Positions 6,433-36,719 of a stretch of DNA of 36,719 nt are shown here, in pieces. A program made the translations under genes and the position numbers. The stretch spans positions 1-36,719 of the forward strand of contig JAYEOW010000033.1 in the NCBI GenBank assembly GCA_034723395.1, written 5' to 3'. This stretch comes from Candidatus Margulisiibacteriota bacterium (GTDB lineage Bacteria; Margulisbacteria; WOR-1; O2-12-FULL-45-9). Numbering within the stretch: position 1 is the first letter of the stretch; the number at the start of each line of letters is the position of its first letter. A model generated the notes under the pieces. That model did no database searches, had not been told where the DNA came from, and saw only the letters and a list, made by a program, of their open reading frames with translations.

Positions 6433-7449
6433 TTAAACATTAAACCGGAAACTCAAAATATCCGCATCTTCAACAATGTAATCTTTCCCTTTGAGGTGGA
6501 ATTTACCCTGCTCTTTTAGTTTACCTTCCGACCCGGCAGAGATTAGTTCGCCATATTTAAACATTTCAGCGCGTACGAATCCTTTCTGAATATCTGAGTG
6601 AATAACCGAGCCGGCAATCGGCGCGCTCGAACCTTTCCTTACCGGCCAGGCACGGACCTCGTCTTCGCCGACGGTAAAGAAAGAGATCAACCCTAATCCG
6701 GAGAACGCAAGGGTGGTCATTTTATCCAGCGCCGATTCTTCGATCCCCATCTCTTTCATGAACTCTTTCCTATCTTTCTCGTCCAGATTGCTGATCTCCT
6801 GTTCGATCTCGACTGATATCTGGACAGCGGGGAGCGACAATTCCTGGCTGATCTCTTCTAATAGTGAGAGGTCTTTGATCTTTTCTTCAGAAACGTTCAC
6901 AACCAAGATGATCGGCTTCATCGATAAGAATTGATAAGTACGCAGCTGTTTTAATTCTTCGTCCGAAGCATCTAATTGCCTGATCGGGAGCTCATCTTCA
7001 AGATGCTTTTTGCAGCGCTCCATAAGCCCCTTCTCTTTTTCCATCTGCGGTGAAGACTTCCTCTTCTGCTCTTTTTCGATATTCTCGATCCGTTTCTCTA
7101 CCAGCATCAGGTCAGATATAACCAGCTCCGAAACGACCGCATCGATCTCTCCCATATTACGCGCAACTAAACATAATTCGTCCGCGTTCTTTAATTGGGT
7201 AAGGATCGCTGTTTTGGCCGGTCCTTGCAGGTTAAAGTCGGGCAGAAGGAGGAATTCGATCTTGGCATAGGTCGTCTTCTTGGGCTTATACATTTCCTTG
7301 AGTTTAGTTACACGGGGATCCTTTACCTCACAAACGCCGATATGGACTTCCAACGGCTTCTGCTGAATGTCACTTAACGACGCTCCGGTCAACAAGCTAT
7401 AAAGCTGCTGCTGTCCGGCCTGCGGTGCTCCTAAAATTACGACACGCAT
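6433..7449 (-). CDS. ychF: YchF/Obg-like ATPase homologue (degenerate P-loop)
   Basis: DPRV..L..MYKPKKTTYA and TGS-type C-terminus (FFTVGEDEVRAW, AGSVIHSDIQKGFVRAE, GKDYIVEDADILSFRFNV). Start reassigned to ATG 7449 (MRVVILG). Confidence 0.85.
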   Translation of the reverse strand: MRVVILGAPQAGQQQLYSLLTGASLSDIQQKPLEVHIGVCEVKDPRVTKLKEMYKPKKTTYAKIEFLLLPDFNLQGPAKTAILTQLKNADELCLVARNMGEIDAVVSELVISDLMLVEKRIENIEKEQKRKSSPQMEKEKGLMERCKKHLEDELPIRQLDASDEELKQLRTYQFLSMKPIILVVNVSEEKIKDLSLLEEISQELSLPAVQISVEIEQEISNLDEKDRKEFMKEMGIEESALDKMTTLAFSGLGLISFFTVGEDEVRAWPVRKGSSAPIAGSVIHSDIQKGFVRAEMFKYGELISAGSEGKLKEQGKFHLKGKDYIVEDADILSFRFNV

Positions 7450-7507: not shown

Positions 7508-8075
7508 ATGAGTATCGCGAATGCCTTAAACATAAATAGATCACGTGCTACCTCTGTAAGGGTGGCTGAAAAAGACGTGCTAAGTTTTCTCGACTACAGC
7601 AGATCGGCCGCTATTGTGTACTCCTCTTCGGATTAATTTAACATAGAAGTTTTACACGACGTAAAAAATCGTGTTACCCAAGAGATGACACCTGAAACTA
7701 GCTAGTACTGTAAAGCATGTTTGGCCGCGCTGGGAACAAGGAGCGGTTAAAATTAATATTGACGCTGGAAAGATTCGTGACGACCAACATTATATATACA
7801 AATATGGCTGGAATAGACAAACTCTCGATTCGAACGGAGTTTTAGCGCTTGCCCTTATTAATCGCTCGAATGCAAAATCTAAGGCAGGAAAGCAATTTTT
7901 GGCAGAAAAATTCCAACCTAATGAAGCTATGTACATCTTGGATATAGTGAAGCATGCGGCTATCACTTGGGATCCCCGATCTGCGAAGGCTTATCGGGGA
8001 CGCGGAGGCGTATATCTTATGCTTCTTCTTCTCCTTGTCGCCTCACTAAAAAATACTGATAGAGAGTCAGAATAA
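7508..8075 (+). pseudogene. Probable decayed orphan gene
   Basis: ATG sits at the same offset from the motif as in intact orphans, but the frame stops after about 42 codons; no long ORF in the 570 bp up to the tRNA 3' end. Confidence 0.3.
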
Positions 8076-29120: not shown

Positions 29121-29162
29121 CTGGGGGAGAAGGCCTTCGACTCCGCTCAGGCCAAGGATTCG
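29121..29162 (-). other. tRNA 3'-end remnant (Gln-like, att-like) interrupted by a small hairpin
   Basis: CTGGGGGAGAAGG[CCTTCGACTCCGCTCAGGCC AAGG]ATTCG; removing the insertion gives the reverse complement of CGAATCCTTCTCCCCCAG. Confidence 0.45.
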
Positions 29163-29242
29163 TCCTCCGCGCCGCTGGGGCGGCGGTTCCAGGACATGGA
29201 ATTTTTCTTCCGCTCGGAATTGTTTTAAATAATAATACATCG

Positions 29243-29361
29243 CCTTAATCCTCACTCCTTAATTCTTATCCTTAAATTTTGCGCAAACAAGCTAACGGGA
29301 ACTATATAACTAAACAAGGATTAGGATTAAGGATTAAGGAAATTTTGCTTACGCAAAATTT
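29243..29361. repeat. Inverted array of CCTTAAT/ATTAAGG heptamer repeats plus a small hairpin
   Basis: CCTTAATCCTCACTCCTTAATTCTTATCCTTAA ... AAGGATTAGGATTAAGGATTAAGG, then AATTTTGC-TTAC-GCAAAATT. Confidence 0.65.
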
Positions 29362-29362
29362 A

Positions 29363-29467
29363 TTGACTATTTACGAAAATATTCGAAACGATTTTATTAA
29401 ATAATGATGAGCGGCGATTGCCGCCGTTCAATCGCCGCTCATTTTCCGTTTTCAGCGGCCTTTTCGG
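29363..29467 (+). repeat. Left 105-bp inverted repeat of the defence cassette
   Basis: Exact reverse complement of 36552-36656; contains a 14-bp stem ATGAGCGGCGATTG-N8-CAATCGCCGCTCAT. Confidence 0.97.
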
Positions 29468-29536
29468 ATTGGACGATTTCAAGTTTTTCTTCGGAATGAT
29501 TCCAACTGCATTTCATGCAGTTGGCGGCAAATTCTT

Positions 29537-30403
29537 TTAATTCTTCTGGAACACATTTAGCACATCGGCTTCATTCTTCGAAACTGATAATTGTTGGACT
29601 TTCTCTTTTGAGAATCTAATAATCCGGCCTAAATTTAAACGGCACAAAAATAATATTTTCCGCTTTGCAAGCTTGGCAATCCCTTTATTTCTCCTTAAGA
29701 AAAAGTCTAGGCTCACAAAAAGCTCTTCATAAGCCATATAAATCGCAAAAATATACAAAAATGGTAAATAAACAACTGTTAATAATGGAGGAAGAAGAAA
29801 AGAGCGAAGATTAACTGTAGTAACCAAAACCTGATAATTACTAAATACACTAAAAAGGGCAAAAAGAATTAATAAAAGGCCCAAAATTGCAAGAATTGAA
29901 TCCATTATTCTCTTGACTGAAGAATGCTCCTTTTTCATCTCTGCTACGACACTAACAATACCGACAAAAACAAACAGTGGAACGAGAACTATCTCAGTTA
30001 ATACGCTAAAAGCATAAAAGCCCACAATGAATTCGAGCACCAAGATTAGCTTTAGATTATCCAGTAATAATTTCCTAAAATGGTGCTCATCCCGTAAAGC
30101 CTTATTTGAATTCATTAAAAGCACAACTGCCACACCTATACCCCAGAGAATAGTATCCTTCATCAATGAGACATCCCATAATTGAGTTTTATAAAACAAA
30201 ATAATTATCGAGGTTACGTATAAAAGCATCGTGATTAGTATAAAAATAATCTTTCCCCTCATCAGAGCCCTAAATATATCAAAAATTGACTTCCGTAGAT
30301 TCCTTTGCAATAAAGCACAAACAAGGATAAATAAACCCCAAAGGATGACGGCCAATTCTCTATTGTTAAATATGCCAGTAAATAATCTTATATCTGTTGT
30401 CAT
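29537..30403 (-). CDS. Multi-pass membrane protein (about 7-8 TM), unknown function
   Basis: Repeated hydrophobic helices and a basic C-terminal tail. Confidence 0.8.
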   Translation of the reverse strand: MTTDIRLFTGIFNNRELAVILWGLFILVCALLQRNLRKSIFDIFRALMRGKIIFILITMLLYVTSIIILFYKTQLWDVSLMKDTILWGIGVAVVLLMNSNKALRDEHHFRKLLLDNLKLILVLEFIVGFYAFSVLTEIVLVPLFVFVGIVSVVAEMKKEHSSVKRIMDSILAILGLLLILFALFSVFSNYQVLVTTVNLRSFLLPPLLTVVYLPFLYIFAIYMAYEELFVSLDFFLRRNKGIAKLAKRKILFLCRLNLGRIIRFSKEKVQQLSVSKNEADVLNVFQKN

Positions 30404-30451
30404 TTGATTTTAAGCGGGGCAAATTCTTCTAATTATACGGATTTCTTAAAA

Positions 30452-31330
30452 TTACCAGAATACCCCATCTACCAAATTGTCATCGATTTTAAGAAAATCA
30501 AATGTAGCTTTGCCTTCCTCATCTATCTCCAATAAAATATGCCCCTCACTCCGCGTTGAAAACATATATCTTGTTTTATTGTTATATGCTACACCCCTTG
30601 AATATTCGGGCTTTGAATATGAGGGTTCGATGCTTTCATCACCAGAGTTTGCAGACACTATATTAAAATGCGGTTTCCCCATCGTCTGAAATATCTCTTT
30701 GCAAAACCCAGACGAATGGCCATGATGGGAAGCAACAAAAAAAGAACTATTTGCAATCGAGTTTTTAAAATTATCGTTTTTTAGCAATTCTATCCACGCA
30801 TTCGATTCAAGGTCACCATGAAAAGAGATCTTCCAATTTTTATATTCAATAAAAGTTGAGATGCTTGAGTTATTAACAAAACAACCTTTTCCTAACAATT
30901 TTGCTTCTTCAGGAGTCAAGGATTCACCATGATAAATATTCGCACCCCAATCAGGAGTTGATGAAAGGGATTGATTATAAGATTTCTGCCAACCAGAATA
31001 CACATCCAAATTATGGTATAAATCTTTATCTCCTGTTTTTACGTCATCCCAATTATATATATGTCTTTTCATTATGCCTGGGCTCAAATCTCCTTTTAAT
31101 CTTTCAATATCAGTTAAATGATCATCATGTGGATGCGACAATACAAATTTGGTTAATTTATGCCCATTATATGTTTTCGCTCCAACCAATTCGTTCTCAG
31201 CAATATATTTAATGGGGGAAAAAGATTGTGTAGAGCCGCAATCAATCAACAGCGTATAATCATTAGGGGTTCTTATAAAAGCACAAAAACCTTGCTCAAC
31301 ATTAAATATTAGCACTCTTAGCTTACCCAT
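30452..31330 (-). CDS. ComEC/Rec2-type metallo-beta-lactamase-fold hydrolase
   Basis: NVEQG, LIDCG, SHPHDDH (HxHxDH), NNSS, HGD, SHHGHSSG; SD GAGGAG. Confidence 0.88.
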   Translation of the reverse strand: MGKLRVLIFNVEQGFCAFIRTPNDYTLLIDCGSTQSFSPIKYIAENELVGAKTYNGHKLTKFVLSHPHDDHLTDIERLKGDLSPGIMKRHIYNWDDVKTGDKDLYHNLDVYSGWQKSYNQSLSSTPDWGANIYHGESLTPEEAKLLGKGCFVNNSSISTFIEYKNWKISFHGDLESNAWIELLKNDNFKNSIANSSFFVASHHGHSSGFCKEIFQTMGKPHFNIVSANSGDESIEPSYSKPEYSRGVAYNNKTRYMFSTRSEGHILLEIDEEGKATFDFLKIDDNLVDGVFW

Positions 31331-31345
31331 TAAATAATATCTCCT

Positions 31346-31780
31346 CTAGCTTAGATCAGTTCTTTTAGAAATTCGTTTCTCAATAAACTCATGAAAATTA
31401 TAACCAGACAAAAAACCAAGCAACACAAAAGCTGTCTGATTTTTTGTGGTTTCTGTGAAATCAAAAGCCAGAAAAATGATCAAAAAGGCAAGTCCCCCAG
31501 CAATAGCTCCCAAAATTGGCCTTGATAAATACCACCATATCCATCTTTCAAAATCAAACATCTTCGAATTATCAACCTTCTCAACAGCACTTTGGTAAAA
31601 TCCCCTAGTCATGTAAACAGCACTACCAAGAAGGCCAGAAAATATCGCGAGAGAACAAGATTTTTCGGAAAAACTCAGAATAAAGTGATCCCTATAGGTT
31701 AGGAACAAAAAAGTTCCGGCTATAAGGTAGCTTACAATAATTACCAGGAAAATAACCAGTTTCTTAAACACCATTCGCAC
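31346..31780 (-). CDS. Small membrane protein (about 4 TM)
   Basis: GLLGSAVY..FD..WIWWYLSRPILGA..GFLSGY helical-hairpin pattern; GTG start with SD GAGGGAG. Confidence 0.75.
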   Translation of the reverse strand: MRMVFKKLVIFLVIIVSYLIAGTFLFLTYRDHFILSFSEKSCSLAIFSGLLGSAVYMTRGFYQSAVEKVDNSKMFDFERWIWWYLSRPILGAIAGGLAFLIIFLAFDFTETTKNQTAFVLLGFLSGYNFHEFIEKRISKRTDLS

Positions 31781-31807
31781 ACTCCCTCATCAACTAAAAA
31801 TAACATA

Positions 31808-31852
31808 TTGACATTTTCATCAGGCAAAAGTATAATCGAAAATGAATCGAAA
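31808..31852 (+). promoter_or_regulatory. Consensus sigma70 promoter with an overlapping direct-repeat operator
   Basis: TTGACA(31808)-17 nt-TATAAT(31831); AATCGAAA at 31834 and 31845 (11-bp period). Confidence 0.8.
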
Positions 31853-31860
31853 GTCAAGAT

Positions 31861-33336
31861 ATGCTAACTAAAAGACAAAAACAAGTTCTGGATTTCATCA
31901 AATCATTCCTTAAAAAGAAGGGATTCGCCCCCTCTTTAGAGGAGATAAAGAAGCACCTTAAGTTATCTTCGGTTTCTACAGCACATCATCACATGAAGGC
32001 ACTGGAACGCCTTGGCTTCCTCAAAAGAGAAGAAAACCAGCCTAGAGCTGTGGATGTTTTTGAGGCGGGGCAAATGGTTACAATTCCTCTACTTGGAGTT
32101 ATCTCCGCTGGCGTACCGATCGAGGCAATCGAAGATAAGGAAACCATCGCAGTGCAAAAATCGAGACTGCCCAGAAACGGTGAATTTTACGCACTGAAAG
32201 TAAAAGGCACCAGCATGATTGATGAAAACATTAATGATGGCGATATTGTGGTTGTTAGAAGTCAGTCAACCGCAGACAATGGGGATAAGATTGTTGCTTT
32301 GATTGATAATACCGAAGTCACACTAAAAAAACTATTTAAGGAAAAAGGCCGGATTAGACTCCAGCCAGCAAACGCTGAGTTACAACCAATTTATGTTGAT
32401 CCTAAGAACTTAGTTATTCAAGGAAAAGTAATAGATATTGTCAAAACACAAGAGGCATCACCAGAAATTAGCACTCAAGAACAAGAAGATCTTTTCCCCC
32501 TCCCCCAATCAAACAACGAAGACCTCCCTCTCAATACAATCATGTGCAATGATTCTCTTGAGAGAATGAAAAAAATGCCCACAAACTCAATCGATTTAGT
32601 TATTGCAGATCCTCCCTACAACCTCTCAAAGGGTAATTCGTGGTCTTGGAAAGGAAACAAAACTCTTCCGGGATTTGGCGGCACATGGAATAAGACAAAA
32701 GAATCTTGGGACAATATGCCCCTAAATGATTACTTAAATTTTACTTTGGCCTGGCTTTCCGAAGCAAAAAGACTATTAAAACCATCGGGATCAATTTGGG
32801 TATTTGGAACCTACCATAACATAGGAATAATTAATATCGCACTCCAGTTTCTTGGCATTGAAATTATTAATGAGGTTGTCTGGTATAAAAGAAACGCCTT
32901 CCCAAACTTATCTGGTCGGCGACTTACCGCAAGCCATGAAACGCTATTGTGGGGACATGTTGGAGAAAAGAAACGTAAGTATTATTTTAATTATAAAAGA
33001 TCAAAAGAGTTTTATTCTCCATCTGACAAATTAAAGGCACAGGGGAAACAAATGCGCACAGTTTGGGATATTCCAAACAATAAAAACCGTGAAGAAATCA
33101 AATATGGCAAACACCCAACACAAAAGCCACTTAGTATATGCAAAAGGATTATTCTTCTTAGCTCAAAAGAAGATGATATTGTGTTTTCTCCATTTGCCGG
33201 AGTAGGAAGTGAATGTTTGGCTGCGAAATTACTAGACAGACAATACATTGGCATTGAAAAGGAGATACAATATGTCGAAATCGCACAAAAGCGCCTCAAA
33301 AATACAAAGAAACTATTACAACTTTTTAAAGCATGA
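31861..33336 (+). CDS. lexA: LexA repressor fused to a beta-class N4/N6 DNA methyltransferase
   Basis: LTKRQKQVLDFI..APSLEEI wHTH, ISAG cleavage site, GTSM Ser, TLKK Lys; then ADPPYN, HPTQKP, SPFAGVGS. Confidence 0.92.
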   Translation: MLTKRQKQVLDFIKSFLKKKGFAPSLEEIKKHLKLSSVSTAHHHMKALERLGFLKREENQPRAVDVFEAGQMVTIPLLGVISAGVPIEAIEDKETIAVQKSRLPRNGEFYALKVKGTSMIDENINDGDIVVVRSQSTADNGDKIVALIDNTEVTLKKLFKEKGRIRLQPANAELQPIYVDPKNLVIQGKVIDIVKTQEASPEISTQEQEDLFPLPQSNNEDLPLNTIMCNDSLERMKKMPTNSIDLVIADPPYNLSKGNSWSWKGNKTLPGFGGTWNKTKESWDNMPLNDYLNFTLAWLSEAKRLLKPSGSIWVFGTYHNIGIINIALQFLGIEIINEVVWYKRNAFPNLSGRRLTASHETLLWGHVGEKKRKYYFNYKRSKEFYSPSDKLKAQGKQMRTVWDIPNNKNREEIKYGKHPTQKPLSICKRIILLSSKEDDIVFSPFAGVGSECLAAKLLDRQYIGIEKEIQYVEIAQKRLKNTKKLLQLFKA

Positions 33337-34142
33337 AAAAACTACTACCACTTATCAAATGGTCGGGCAGTAAAAGAAGCCAAGCAGAAGAAATAATTGG
33401 CCTCTTCCCAGATACCGTTAACACTTACTACGAGCCATTTCTTGGAGGAGGCTCCATACTAGGTGCTTTTTCCCCAAAGAAGGCCATTTGTGGAGATGTT
33501 TGCCAAGCCCTCATAGAATTGTGGAAATTAGCACAAACCAAGCCTGATTTAGTCCATAGTGAATACAAAAAACGCTGGGAAAAACTTCAAAAAGACAAAC
33601 ACCCATTCTATTATGAGGTTAGATCTCGTTTTAACAAAAAGCAGTCACCTCACGACCTGTTATTTCTAACAAGAACTTGCGTAAATGGTCTTATAAGATT
33701 CAATAGAAAAGGTGAGTTTAACAATTCCCTGCACTATTCCAGAAAGGGGATCCACCCTGAAAACCTAAGAAACATAGCAAAAACATGGAGCAATAAAATA
33801 GAATCATATAGTTTTGATGTAAAACATTATTTTGATCTTACAAAAAAGGCTGGTAAAAATGATTTCGTTTACCTTGATCCTCCATATTTCAATACTCGTG
33901 GAAGATATTTTGGAAAAATCGACTTTACTGAATTTCTAAAATATTTGGAAGACTTAAACAATCGGAAAATACGATTTGCCCTTTCTTTTGATGGTGCCAG
34001 AGGTGAAAAATCATATATCGTAAAGCTGCCCAAGAAACTGTACAAAAGACATCATTTGATACACTCAGGAAATTCAACTTTTAATAAAGTGCAAAATGGA
34101 AAAGTCGAAAAGGTTTACGAATCTATCTACCTGAATTACTAG
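33333..34142 (+). CDS. Dam/D12-family (alpha-class) DNA adenine methyltransferase
   Basis: LIKWSGSK, YYEPFLGGGS, NGLIRFN, FVYLDPPY; ATGA overlap with the upstream gene. Confidence 0.92.
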   Translation: MKKLLPLIKWSGSKRSQAEEIIGLFPDTVNTYYEPFLGGGSILGAFSPKKAICGDVCQALIELWKLAQTKPDLVHSEYKKRWEKLQKDKHPFYYEVRSRFNKKQSPHDLLFLTRTCVNGLIRFNRKGEFNNSLHYSRKGIHPENLRNIAKTWSNKIESYSFDVKHYFDLTKKAGKNDFVYLDPPYFNTRGRYFGKIDFTEFLKYLEDLNNRKIRFALSFDGARGEKSYIVKLPKKLYKRHHLIHSGNSTFNKVQNGKVEKVYESIYLNY

Positions 34143-36156
34143 CTCTGATCACTCTCAACTCTATTGCGTTTGAGTACCTATGGGTTAGTTTTTTAATGGT
34201 TGGCAAAAATTGTTCGGCCTGATCATCAAAAATCGTATAAATGATAACAAAGTCTCTCTCGGGTGAATAATCAACGCCAAACACCATATTCAACTTGCCT
34301 TTTTTCAGTACCTGTTGTAATCTTTTTTTGTCTGAGAAACGGAAAGCGGCACCACTCAAAACCTGGCACTTTTTACTGAGCTTATCACTAAATGGTTCCC
34401 ATAACTCCTCCCCAAGTTTTCTTGTGGAAATTGGAGGCCTCTTAATCAAGTTCCCAATATAGCTCCTTAAATGATTACCAATATTCGTTTCAAGCAGAGA
34501 TTCGCTAGCTTTTGACTCAATTGCAACCAGGGTATTCCCTGATCTAAATTGTATCAGATGATCTGGCCTTTTTGTTTTATCACCAGAAACCCTTGGCAGG
34601 GAGGTCCATCTATATTCCCTCTTCTCATCAAAATCGATAATTGAAATTCCACTCCAGTCTCCACCAGGGGGGTTACATAAACCTTCATAGACATCCTCAT
34701 TCAGTGATCGTGCACATAACAAATGGATAACGGAGTCGATATCATGCTCCCCAAAAGAAGGTGTTAGCTTTGCCGCTCTTAATATTTCTGGCTCCATAAC
34801 TTTTTTATTCTGGGGAACTAGCAACCCTCTATTTTCTATTCCTAGGGACGTTGGGCTATCAACCAATATTGCATTACTTAGATTGACAATAGCCTCCCAT
34901 AAACCATTAGTTCTACTTAAATGATACATATCTTCCTGCAATTTTTTCCAAACATCCGATTTTGCAGGACCATATACAATTGTTAATAAGTCTATTTTTT
35001 CGTTACCAAATATCATCCTGGCTAATGGAACAAGCCCCCTATCAGGTCGAGAATCATCCCCACGAGGTTTGAAGCCAGCTATCCAAACACACAGCAGTGG
35101 TCGTTCCCCATCAGAAAGCCAGTTTAGAAACTCACTATTAATGCTTTTACCATAAAGTTTACCAATTTCTTTTGCATATGCCATTCTTCTATTTCCGTCT
35201 AAAAGACAAAAAGGCATATCCTTGGATCCAGCCCCAACTGCACCTTGTTGGATAGTTATTTTTAATAACTTCTTGAACGTTTTAGTAATTGTTTTGAGGC
35301 CAATCTTTTTATTCCAGGACATGCCCTTTTTTATCAACCATCCTGCTTTGTCAAATCCAGTCCGCATTTTTTCTACGGATTCAAATTCATCAGGCGATAA
35401 AATATCATTTCTTTTCCGCTTTTCAGCAAGTATCTTTACTACATTTCGGGACTTAGATTGCAAAGAAGAAATATATTCTTTAAGATTAGTGTTAAATAGT
35501 ACCCCCCTAACTAATTGTGTTGCATCTTTTAATCCAAAGCAATCCTTGAAATCCCTATAATTATCGGCACCTATGGATGGACTAGAAACAAAAACCGGCA
35601 AAGCAATTGCTCCTTCAATCTCACCTAAAGTCAAATAGGCAAAAGGAACTAATGGATTAGGAAAACGAGCAGCTTTCTTATCGCGCGCAAGACCCAATTC
35701 TAGTCCGCCAATTTCTGCAAAATAGAGGTATGGAACTTGGGCATAAGCCATTGCCAATGCTCTTCCACTCCTCTGCCATGCATTATTACCAGCAGGGAGG
35801 GCTCCACAAAACTCTAATGCTAAAATAGGTTCTTCATATTCACCATCGGCAGAACTATTTAATCTTGTTATTATTGCATCTGTAGCCTCTCTTAATGGCG
35901 CCCCCCTGTCCATCAAATGTTTTTTAAGATCTATTCCCCACCTATCATGTCCAGGAAACAATTGAATAAAAAATGAAATATTAGTGTCAGAGATAACCTT
36001 ATAAATAGGGGTAAAAGCTTGCCCGCCAACAAAAGAAAATATAGGGTCATTGGGATTAACTGATGCTGCAAGTAGACTGAGCGCACTCTCGCACTCTAGA
36101 ATATTATCGCCATGGATTCTCAGCCTATATGTTTTTGAATTATTCTTTTGGTTCAT
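34123..36156 (-). CDS. Type IIS restriction endonuclease, BsmI/Mva1269I-like
   Basis: 677 aa; EcoRI-like AGNNAWQRS segment and C-terminal PD-X14-ESK (E547); convergent with two MTases. Family assignment is from recall, not a search. Confidence 0.7.
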   Translation of the reverse strand: MNQKNNSKTYRLRIHGDNILECESALSLLAASVNPNDPIFSFVGGQAFTPIYKVISDTNISFFIQLFPGHDRWGIDLKKHLMDRGAPLREATDAIITRLNSSADGEYEEPILALEFCGALPAGNNAWQRSGRALAMAYAQVPYLYFAEIGGLELGLARDKKAARFPNPLVPFAYLTLGEIEGAIALPVFVSSPSIGADNYRDFKDCFGLKDATQLVRGVLFNTNLKEYISSLQSKSRNVVKILAEKRKRNDILSPDEFESVEKMRTGFDKAGWLIKKGMSWNKKIGLKTITKTFKKLLKITIQQGAVGAGSKDMPFCLLDGNRRMAYAKEIGKLYGKSINSEFLNWLSDGERPLLCVWIAGFKPRGDDSRPDRGLVPLARMIFGNEKIDLLTIVYGPAKSDVWKKLQEDMYHLSRTNGLWEAIVNLSNAILVDSPTSLGIENRGLLVPQNKKVMEPEILRAAKLTPSFGEHDIDSVIHLLCARSLNEDVYEGLCNPPGGDWSGISIIDFDEKREYRWTSLPRVSGDKTKRPDHLIQFRSGNTLVAIESKASESLLETNIGNHLRSYIGNLIKRPPISTRKLGEELWEPFSDKLSKKCQVLSGAAFRFSDKKRLQQVLKKGKLNMVFGVDYSPERDFVIIYTIFDDQAEQFLPTIKKLTHRYSNAIELRVIRASNSGR

Positions 36157-36175
36157 AGCGACATTTGCCTACTGC

Positions 36176-36397
36176 TCAGTCAATAAAAAAAGAAACATCT
36201 TTTCCATAGATGCTAGCAAGCTCTCTCAGCTGAATAATATCGATACGTCTCTGCCCCAATTCAATCTTGGACAAATATGATTGCGACTTATTTAATCTAT
36301 CCGCCACCTCGTTCTGGTCGAATCCAGCTTCATTTCGTGCTTGCTTTAATCGATCCACAATCTTTTTGTGTTCTTTTGAATAGATGACTTTGCTCAT
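36176..36397 (-). CDS. Xre-family HTH controller (C) protein
   Basis: RLKQARNEAGFDQNEVA..SQSYLSKIELGQR; directly upstream of the REase; SD GGAGG supports ATG 36397. Confidence 0.85.
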   Translation of the reverse strand: MSKVIYSKEHKKIVDRLKQARNEAGFDQNEVADRLNKSQSYLSKIELGQRRIDIIQLRELASIYGKDVSFFID

Positions 36398-36413
36398 AAC
36401 TTGCAACCCCTCC

Positions 36414-36457
36414 TATACCATGGTATATTCCATTATGTCATATTCCAAATTGGAATA
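36414..36457 (-). promoter_or_regulatory. Palindromic operator candidates (C-box-like)
   Basis: TATACCATGGTATA (36414-36427) and TATTCCAA-A-TTGGAATA (36441-36457), with a partial copy at 36426. Confidence 0.55.
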
Positions 36458-36551
36458 CTGCCGTTCCTCTCTTTCCTGCAGAAAAAATTTGTTTTTGGCC
36501 AAAATAAAGTGCGAGCCGATATTTTTTAGGGTTCTTTGGCAGTTTTTCAAG

Positions 36552-36656
36552 CCGAAAAGGCCGCTGAAAACGGAAAATGAGCGGCGATTGAACGGCGGCA
36601 ATCGCCGCTCATCATTATTTAATAAAATCGTTTCGAATATTTTCGTAAATAGTCAA
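36552..36656 (-). repeat. Right 105-bp inverted repeat of the defence cassette
   Basis: Exact reverse complement of 29363-29467. Confidence 0.97.
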
Positions 36657-36719
36657 CCATTTATTGGCTCTATAGCAAAGAGTGTGCTAAAAAATAAGTA
36701 AAAGTGTGGTAGGTTTTCC

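Follow-up and report, generated by a model that had tools for sequence, protein, structure and literature searches.

Inverted repeats around a restriction cassette of a Candidatus Margulisiibacteriota genome are probably attachment-site arms of a large serine recombinase island at tRNA-Gln

The window studied here is a stretch of 36,719 nucleotides that makes up the entire contig C33 (JAYEOW010000033.1) of the Candidatus Margulisiibacteriota assembly G000 (GCA_034723395.1; 55 contigs, 1.68 Mb). Near its right end, two inverted repeats of 105 nt enclose a cassette of seven open reading frames (ORFs) that includes a restriction-modification system. With a probability of roughly 0.8, we interpret these repeats as two copies of one attachment-site arm (ARM) of an island that carries a large serine recombinase (LSR) and occupies the 3' end of a tRNA-Gln(CTG) gene. 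The order of the island is chromosome, ARM (forming attR), motifs A and B, cargo, a helix-turn-helix (HTH) gene, recombinase-derived motifs, the second arm (ARM') joined to a repeat called S, the LSR gene, the second S copy (S', forming attL) and tRNA-Gln. It spans ~8.9 kb when an inserted insertion sequence (IS) is left out; the ARM pair frames the cargo, the S pair frames the LSR gene, and the two pairs meet at an internal site.

The segments 29363-29467 and 36552-36656 are exact reverse complements over 105 nt, and the match extends to 109 nt with one mismatch at position 106 (29363-29471 and 36548-36656). The arms and their motifs are the following.

29363..29471, + strand: far arm (ARM), with the attR junction at its outer end (TTG, or ..CAA when the opposite strand is read) and its hairpin at 29407-29442.
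Within 29363..29471, + strand: far-arm motifs, the conserved GAAAATATTCGAAAC and, at the inner end, CCTTTTCGGATTG.
36548..36656, - strand: near arm (ARM'), which joins the adjacent S repeat to make up an internal inverted attP-like site (P2).

The original prediction, made from the letters of this DNA, had described a defence cassette bounded by exact repeats around seven genes, each repeat with a GC-rich hairpin and an AT-rich outer part that contains a dyad, without target-site duplication and without a recombinase of its own. This anatomy stands. The hairpin has 14-15 bp (29407-29420 with 29429-29442), and the dyad near the outer end of each arm, TTACGAAAATATTCGAAA, is imperfect. Comparison of the outer flanks of the two arms shows them to be unrelated and reveals no target-site duplication at the arm ends, and none of the seven ORFs between the arms contains a recombinase or transposase domain. 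The 109-mer has two copies in the whole assembly, and the next-best matches cover 14-24 nt with E of ~0.3 or worse; it is therefore no dispersed high-copy repeat, the case in which the repeats would have had nothing to do with cargo boundaries. In a terminator scan the arm hairpin was the top terminator-like site at both arms and in both directions. Folding gave z below -2 in 36 of 42 arms; stem sequences differ between clades and the hairpin is always present. The GC content is 35-40% inside the cassette versus 43-47% outside, and the depth of Logan contigs from one run, which are assembled from 31-mers, is flat over flank and cargo (15.7-18). An Rfam search of the left arm and its flank returned nothing meaningful, the sole match being snoR135 at 18 bits (E 0.81).

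The right arm stops 63 nt before the end of C33, and these last nucleotides hold two features.

36657..36665, + strand: first 9 nt of the S repeat, CCATTTATT, which are the target-site duplication of an IS; the same 9 nt follow the right end of the IS at G000:C4:127-135.
36666..36719 (54 nt), + strand: left end of a multicopy ISL3-family IS, which ends the contig and breaks P2 nine bases from its centre.

Left ends of this IS close C33, C5, C13 and C55, and right ends open C4, C16, C27 and C39 and close C18. The 9-bp duplications pair these ends uniquely (C33 with C4 through CCATTTATT, C5 with C39, C13 with C27, and C55 with C16), so that four left ends and five right ends yield four mutually exclusive pairs, the right end of C18 being left without a partner. 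Furthermore, the spacer at the start of C4 is homologous, as judged by eye, to the spacer between arm and recombinase in the relative G019. From the target duplication and this synteny we infer that C33 continues through the IS into C4. The same IS lies behind at least nine contig breaks in the assembly, with internal copies in C10 and C24, and in 7/7 of its insertion sites the 9-bp duplication directly abuts TTGAC, a -35-like hexamer.

A repeat that ends 63 nt from a contig end, in a 55-contig metagenome-assembled genome (MAG) whose contig ends share overlaps of ~127 nt, could be suspected of being an assembly artefact, that is, a mis-join or a fold-back of metagenome reads. The contig end is accounted for by the multicopy IS and not by the arm, the sequence beyond the two arms differs, so that there is no fold-back, and the architecture is found again in 46 metagenome contigs, each assembled independently, and in several MAGs. 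We give the artefact next to no chance of being the explanation.

On C4, after a spacer of 146 nt, lies an LSR gene of 491 aa (C4:273-1748), ~155 nt outside the right arm if the IS is discounted. The protein has the domains Resolvase (3.3e-19), Recombinase (1.5e-18) and Zn_ribbon_recom (2.6e-8), the S of YARKST is invariant in the LSR alignment, and the closest solved relatives are SPbeta YokA/SprA (1.4e-12) and the A118 integrase; identity to the LSR of G019 is 63%. A look to the right of the window, which the original prediction had recommended, thus led to the recombinase, not as an enzyme acting in trans from elsewhere, as had been supposed, but on C4 just beyond the right arm, with the IS between. 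The tRNA-Gln(CTG) gene, on the opposite strand, overlaps the 3' end of the LSR gene. A perfect 75-nt inverted repeat, the S pair (C4:127-201 and C4:1635-1709), frames the LSR gene, its second copy lying between the LSR 3' end and the tRNA. Three sites result, written here with a slash at the junction.

P1, attL: tRNA ..CTCCCCCAA / CCATTTATTATAAGG..
P2, internal site: ARM' ..AAATAGTCAA / CCATTTATT..
P3, attR: ARM' ..AAATAGTCAA / TAAATTTTGCG.. (flank)

All three share the junction ..CAA, and the site centre, AAATAG-TCAA-CCATTT, is an imperfect palindrome, as in serine-recombinase sites. P2 is inverted relative to P1 and P3, and because both element-side arms are present in it, P2 constitutes an intact attP-like site. 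The three-site layout accounts for the lack of a target duplication, and also for the presence of two sets of inverted repeats, one around the cargo and one around the LSR gene, which come together at a single point. The proposal that the repeats are the ends of a non-autonomous element does not hold: on the left, the outer end corresponds to attR of the tRNA-Gln island, and on the right it coincides with the centre of the internal attP-like site. Nor does the island resemble a non-autonomous transposon with terminal repeats, since there is no duplication, the right arm is internal, and the 109-mer is found nowhere else in the genome. Judged from its sequence, it would belong with LSR integrative elements by its enzyme domains and by its hybrid attL and attR with a short shared core, and departs from their single attP by the complete inverted ARM'|S between cargo and recombinase.

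This layout is not confined to one genome. Arm-like sequence was found in inverted pairs in a similarity search of 61 genomes (G000 and 60 relatives). An exact-pattern scan of the genome contigs with the 43-nt hairpin core gave no match; a degenerate 28-nt pattern gave 8 loci on 7 genome contigs, from MAGs labelled Margulisiibacteriota, Saganbacteria, Woesebacteria and 'Gammaproteobacteria'. In G019, tRNA-Gln is followed by a 499-aa LSR, a 155-nt spacer and the first arm; an HTH gene, a type IIG restriction enzyme and an OLD nuclease come next, and beyond the second arm lies flagellin. No insertion interrupts the internal site of the G019 element. G048 has the same layout at tRNA-Ser(GGA) with different cargo. 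A distant element, whose recombinase is 44% identical, sits at tRNA-Leu with a perfect 95-nt S pair, a 118-nt ARM pair, one cargo gene and a 23-nt core common to all three sites. The targets of the genome loci are tRNA-Gln, tRNA-Leu and tRNA-Ser (in G048).

A metagenome scan by alignment of the recombinase confirmed at least 524 relatives, the best 80 of which were analysed. The S pair is present in 44 of the 49 loci where it could be evaluated, and the ARM pair in 46 of the 64 loci whose upstream sequence reaches 450 nt or more; in the 18 others, the upstream sequence measures less than 2 kb in 12 cases, 2.5-3.4 kb in three and 10 kb in three more (L106, L112 and L114). A tRNA lies at the 3' end of the recombinase gene in 34 of 47 loci (mostly tRNA-Ser, and also Asp, Lys and Ala), and two tRNA-less loci are tandem arrays of two elements. 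Forty elements, three near-duplicates included, are complete; their arms have a median length of 111 nt, and their cargo spans 617-5978 nt (median 1476), so that the window cargo, at 7.08 kb, is the largest among the elements examined. LSR-island relatives occur in Margulisiibacteriota, Patescibacteria and other MAGs. Two further observations concern arrangement and decay. In L046 (8298-18166) and L077 (1-5843), two complete elements, or one and a remnant, stand in tandem at one tRNA-Ser, the junction between them being a hybrid of the ARM of one element and the S of the other. A decayed island in L032 (JAFGHC010000001.1, 3963-10110) keeps the far arm, motifs B'A', the near-side recombinase-derived pieces and the HTH gene; its near arm and recombinase gene are lost, and a tRNA-Gln lies nearby in opposite orientation.

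Arms differ strongly between elements, yet within an element they are alike, with a median identity of 99.0% across the 40 complete elements, which we treat as independent. Some process keeps the two arms of each element alike. The statement that full identity of the window repeats implies recent duplication is consequently too narrow, given that ~99% arm identity is general in the family.

The orientation of the cargo relative to the recombinase is also constant: it is the same in 40/40 metagenome elements and in 6/6 genome loci. This bears on the suggestion of the original prediction that the cassette may be a phase-variation system. In such a system the recombinase would flip the 7.1-kb segment between the arms and thereby switch expression or specificity, in the manner of Hin/Gin or a shufflon. 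The arms are indeed inverted and carry the recombinase core at their outer ends, and P2 x P3 would invert the cargo. There is also one flipped relative, L074 (1-1143), which belongs to the 18 loci without a detectable ARM pair. In it, B'A' stand beside the arm nearer to the recombinase gene, and the cargo is encoded on the same strand as the recombinase. With arms 95-97% identical to the L073 arms, it represents an L073-like element in flipped form and is the only such case found, which indicates that inversion is a real but rare event. A Logan contig links 36551 with 29467 in opposite-strand orientation; this joint was rejected as evidence of inversion, because 31-mers are shorter than the 105-nt arm and the path through a collapsed repeat is arbitrary, and the MAG contig itself passes unbroken through the left arm. 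Two sibling runs contain almost none of the sequence words, an outcome that carries no weight either way. A flip would moreover have no obvious switching effect, since the cargo has its own promoters and both arms contain putative terminators.

The likeness to Hin, Gin, Cin and shufflons extends to the recombinase gene, which lies immediately beyond a segment bounded by inverted recombinase sites, and to conserved DNA motifs within the 5' coding part of that gene. However, those systems have small invertases of ~190 aa, 26-bp sites, a Fis enhancer and coexisting orientations, whereas here a 491-aa LSR is found with arms of 105-109 nt and one dominant orientation. An invertible, phase-variable cassette is thus very unlikely, and the island is no regulated inversion switch.

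What varies in this family is the cargo. Of the pairs that can be formed from the 40 elements, 64 combine an arm identity of at least 85% with a DNA identity of 82-94% between their recombinase genes, and in 57 of these pairs the cargo interior is unrelated; four pairs have the same cargo and three have partly common cargo. At the level of the family, the predicted swapping of cargo therefore holds, homologous repeats flanking different cargo in relatives and metagenomes; its companions, a recombinase in trans and phase variation, are not supported. In most pairs within a group of eight elements, homology on the recombinase-proximal side breaks off at the stop codon of a ~70-aa HTH gene or shortly after it, and in pairs that include one of the two more divergent HTH genes (L047 and L065) it does so earlier. 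On the far side only the last 17-91 nt are homologous (motif B, sometimes two small hairpins, and motif A), the exceptions being one partly cargo-sharing pair that reaches 1405 nt and two pairs without a far-side match. The far swap boundary is thus motif B, of 18-20 nt. Pfam was run on the 37 distinct elements, and defence genes in metagenome cargo were counted by Pfam alone. The HTH gene comes first in 20/37, and domains of DNA methylases, restriction enzymes or the cyclic-oligonucleotide-based antiphage signalling system (CBASS) type occur in 10/37; other cargo comprises transporters, a racemase, a radical-SAM enzyme, other enzymes and unknowns. The mixed content makes the platform a general carrier of accessory genes and not of defence only.

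The margins of the cargo segment are made of inverted pieces of the recombinase gene, distributed among the 40 elements as follows.

Next to the far arm: nt ~84-120 of the recombinase gene, in 39/40 elements.
Next to the near arm: nt 138-157 of the recombinase gene, in 40/40 elements.
After the nt 138-157 piece: a 28-nt piece of the recombinase 3' end, in 35/40 elements; in four of the five misses the gene is cut by a contig end.
After the 3'-end piece: a piece of the recombinase 5' untranslated region (5'-UTR), in 39/40 elements.

In the window they take these positions.

29472..29542, + strand: motif A (29472-29489) and motif B (29523-29542), inverted copies of recombinase nt ~84-120, split by a 33-nt insert with a small hairpin; on the far side, the swappable cargo ends at motif B.
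36478..36547, - strand: inverted pieces of the 5'-UTR (36478-36500), of the 3' end (36501-36528) and of nt 138-157, named 'IN' (36531-36547).

Read as a circle, the pieces follow one another as they do in the gene, but the circle is cut open elsewhere, and for this reason the cargo segment resembles a second copy of the recombinase segment that has been circularly permuted and gutted. The 17 nt between recombinase nt 120 and 138 form a small palindrome, and the distant tRNA-Leu element is opened at another place, near codon 450. The pieces may provide both operons with a common upstream promoter or operator on which the HTH protein acts. A frame that enters the left arm (..EELKEFAAN..EKLEIVQSEKAAENGK*) was once considered as the frameshifted end of a gene with a zinc ribbon; it is instead an inverted fragment of the 5' part of the recombinase gene.

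The permuted copy also invites a different construction, in which recombinase and cargo modules are separate circles with palindromic sites (S'|S or ARM'|ARM), insertion splits the palindrome and leaves each module within an inverted repeat of its own, and the whole works as an integron-like modular platform driven by a serine recombinase. One step would then account for both repeat pairs, for the common core, and for an orientation fixed by a non-palindromic core dinucleotide, and the cargo segment, as a ghost of the recombinase segment (UTR, B'A', IN and 3' pieces), would fit as well. G048 contributes three cassettes parted by 55-nt junction repeats. However, arms track the type of recombinase and not the cargo, as the unrelated cargo in 57 of the 64 near-identical-arm pairs illustrates, the swap points fall inside the arms, and no free cargo module or palindromic site was seen. 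The arrays of L046 and L077, which had been entertained as separately mobile cargo modules, proved to be whole elements in tandem, each of them retaining a recombinase of its own or the remains of one. We consider separate circles improbable. The three-cassette array itself (L023, G048:C12, 4859-9028) has each cassette preceded by the last ~35 nt of an HTH gene and followed by motif B, the junction repeats (motif B and the 3' end of an HTH gene) lying at 6530-6584 and 7954-8008.

To return to the island with an attachment-site arm at each end of its cargo, its circular form would be integrated at the tRNA by the LSR through attP x attB, and attL x attR could release it again. Cargo would be exchanged by recombination within the conserved platform of arms, recombinase-derived motifs and HTH gene. 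The GC-rich arm hairpin may act as a two-way terminator that insulates the payload, and the conserved GAAAAWATYCGAAC motif is a putative binding place of the recombinase. A folded single-stranded circle that gives a double-stranded attP, as in CTX phage, was also considered and set aside; on paper, a serine-type exchange would leave hairpin-capped chromosome ends.

Several points weigh against this interpretation. The join of C33 to C4 was deduced and not read through. A circle with two equivalent attP sites predicts both insertion isomers, and 40/40 elements show one. A crossover with a 2-bp core cannot homogenise arms of 105 nt, so that the 99% identity is left unexplained. The internal site of G000 is probably dead, because the IS sits 9 bp from its centre; P1 and P3 are intact. 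Neither a circle junction nor an empty site was seen in the Logan contigs of the one run, the relatives are too diverged to yield a clean empty tRNA-Gln site with the G000 flank, and no recombination directionality factor was identified.

The left flank retains traces of earlier events. Between island and chromosome, ~240 nt (29124-29362) look like the remnant of an older element, which is closed by the following feature.

29124..29145, - strand: tRNA-Gln 3'-end-like repeat outside the island, whose reverse complement resembles the 3' end of the genome's own tRNA-Gln.

The repeat appears to mark the old edge of the integration hotspot. The stretch 29150-29216 is 88% identical to a stretch 149-215 nt past tRNA-Gln in G007, which likewise ends in a tRNA 3'-end repeat. 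Left of P3 (29316-29362) stands a hairpin, AAATTTTGC-ttac-GCAAAATTT, preceded by AGGATTA-type repeats. In relatives this hairpin is dispersed and often lies just past tRNA genes (e.g., G003:C4:36650-36701), as would be expected if the insertion had separated a tRNA from the region downstream of it. No tRNA was found in the left flank. An empty site was sought through the flanking MscS protein, which had matches of 49-51% identity in 2/15 family genomes, neither locus with a nearby tRNA-Gln. The 14 nt at 29296-29309, CGGGAACTATATAA, equal the first 14 nt of the arm type in the tRNA-Ser elements of G048 and G035 and may be a scrap of the arm of another element.

The genes between the arms are listed from left to right.

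29537..30403, - strand: predicted membrane protein, 288 aa, no family assigned.
30452..31330, - strand: metallo-beta-lactamase-fold protein, 292 aa (Lactamase_B 6.6e-6; PDC-M48B match, PDLC04675, 1.3e-36).
31346..31780, - strand: 144-aa protein, hydrophobic by eye, with no Pfam or PADLOC match.
31861..33336, + strand: LexA-type repressor/N4-N6 DNA methyltransferase fusion, 491 aa (LexA DNA-binding domain and S24 peptidase; N6_N4_Mtase 5.4e-57).
33333..34142, + strand: D12-class (Dam-like) N6-adenine methyltransferase, 269 aa (MethyltransfD12 6.5e-35), the second methylase of the type IIS system.
34123..36156, - strand: type IIS restriction endonuclease, BsmI homologue, 677 aa (BsmI chains 2.2e-84 over residues 12-605; REase_II 7.5e-115).
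36176..36406, - strand: HTH_3 regulator, 76 aa, the conserved platform gene and first of the cargo operon; its stop codon is the near cargo boundary.

The endonuclease is homologous to BsmI over ~600 residues and comes with two methyltransferases that belong to different classes, which matches the expectation for the asymmetric site of a type IIS enzyme, so that the cargo contains a BsmI-like type IIS restriction-modification system; it differs from the BsmI system in that one of the methylases is fused to a complete LexA-type repressor. Of PDC-M48, a candidate defence system made up of an A and a B protein, the B protein alone was matched (1.3e-36), and its neighbours of 288 and 144 aa match no PADLOC model. 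A degenerate motif B (30415-30434, 17/20 nt) just upstream of the 288-aa gene, between it and the metallo-beta-lactamase-fold gene, hints at two joined cassettes, and the 288-aa gene may be a separate one. Back-to-back promoters (31808-31857) separate the LexA-methylase gene from the leftward three-gene cluster, with TTGACA-17-TATAAT on the + strand (12/12, 31808-31836) and TTGACT-17-TATACT on the - strand. Outside the window, a second LexA-type repressor/methylase fusion occurs in the BglII-type system of another element, and stand-alone LexA-like genes lie beside methylases in two more elements (the loci are L075:3740-5389, L095:6426-7037 and L107:1021-1620). As domain associations, these suggest a DNA-damage-responsive control of restriction-modification.

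Comparison with known systems locates what is distinctive. With LSR elements such as SPbeta (SprA/YokA), A118, phiC31 and Bxb1, the island shares the enzyme with Resolvase, Recombinase and zinc-ribbon parts, site-specific insertion, and hybrid junctions with few common crossover bases. Known LSR elements have one attP and are flanked after insertion by attL and attR only, whereas the island family keeps a second complete inverted attP-like site between recombinase gene and cargo and two adjoining pairs of near-perfect inverted repeats of ~75-110 nt. The family also differs from them in its target, tRNA 3' ends, which are more typical of tyrosine integrases. The staphylococcal cassette chromosome SCCmec, with its Ccr recombinases, is likewise a serine-recombinase island at one site with highly variable cargo and tandem accretion (here L046 and L077). 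SCC elements have short direct or inverted terminal repeats, recombinase genes within the cargo region and rlmH as target, and are not known to contain an internal inverted att site; the internal inverted att site and the tRNA target of the island family set it apart. Integrons also combine a recombinase gene with neighbouring, promoter-poor, swappable cassettes (three in G048) and sharp swap boundaries. They employ a tyrosine recombinase and folded single-stranded attC sites, whereas no cassette-borne recombination site was identified in the island family, where exchange may be plain homologous recombination through the platform.

Full-text literature searches returned no description of serine-integrase elements with an internal inverted attP, and passages of the tycheposon preprint describe no such layout. 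The island family is widespread and apparently undescribed in the literature searched. Large serine integrases are valued because short sites suffice and the reaction runs one way, and here a very large natural family (at least 524 relatives in one metagenome scan) is built unlike the textbook LSR elements. Three traits distinguish it: an internal complete inverted site, an integrase gene and a payload each framed by near-perfect repeats of ~100 nt, and exchange of the payload, be it restriction systems, CBASS-like genes, transporters or enzymes, between fixed boundaries. We can only speculate, with little confidence, that the inverted internal site is the working principle of a serine-recombinase cassette platform, in which circles with palindromic sites are inserted, chained and exchanged at tRNA genes and a hairpin state of adjacent arms keeps the arms identical. 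If true, an integron-like system would have been invented a second time, independently, and would be widespread among uncultivated bacteria with small genomes. Once explained, the spare site and the identity of the arms could reveal a new mechanism of control or exchange for large serine integrases, and would also explain how small-genome bacteria with little known mobile DNA gain defence and accessory genes.

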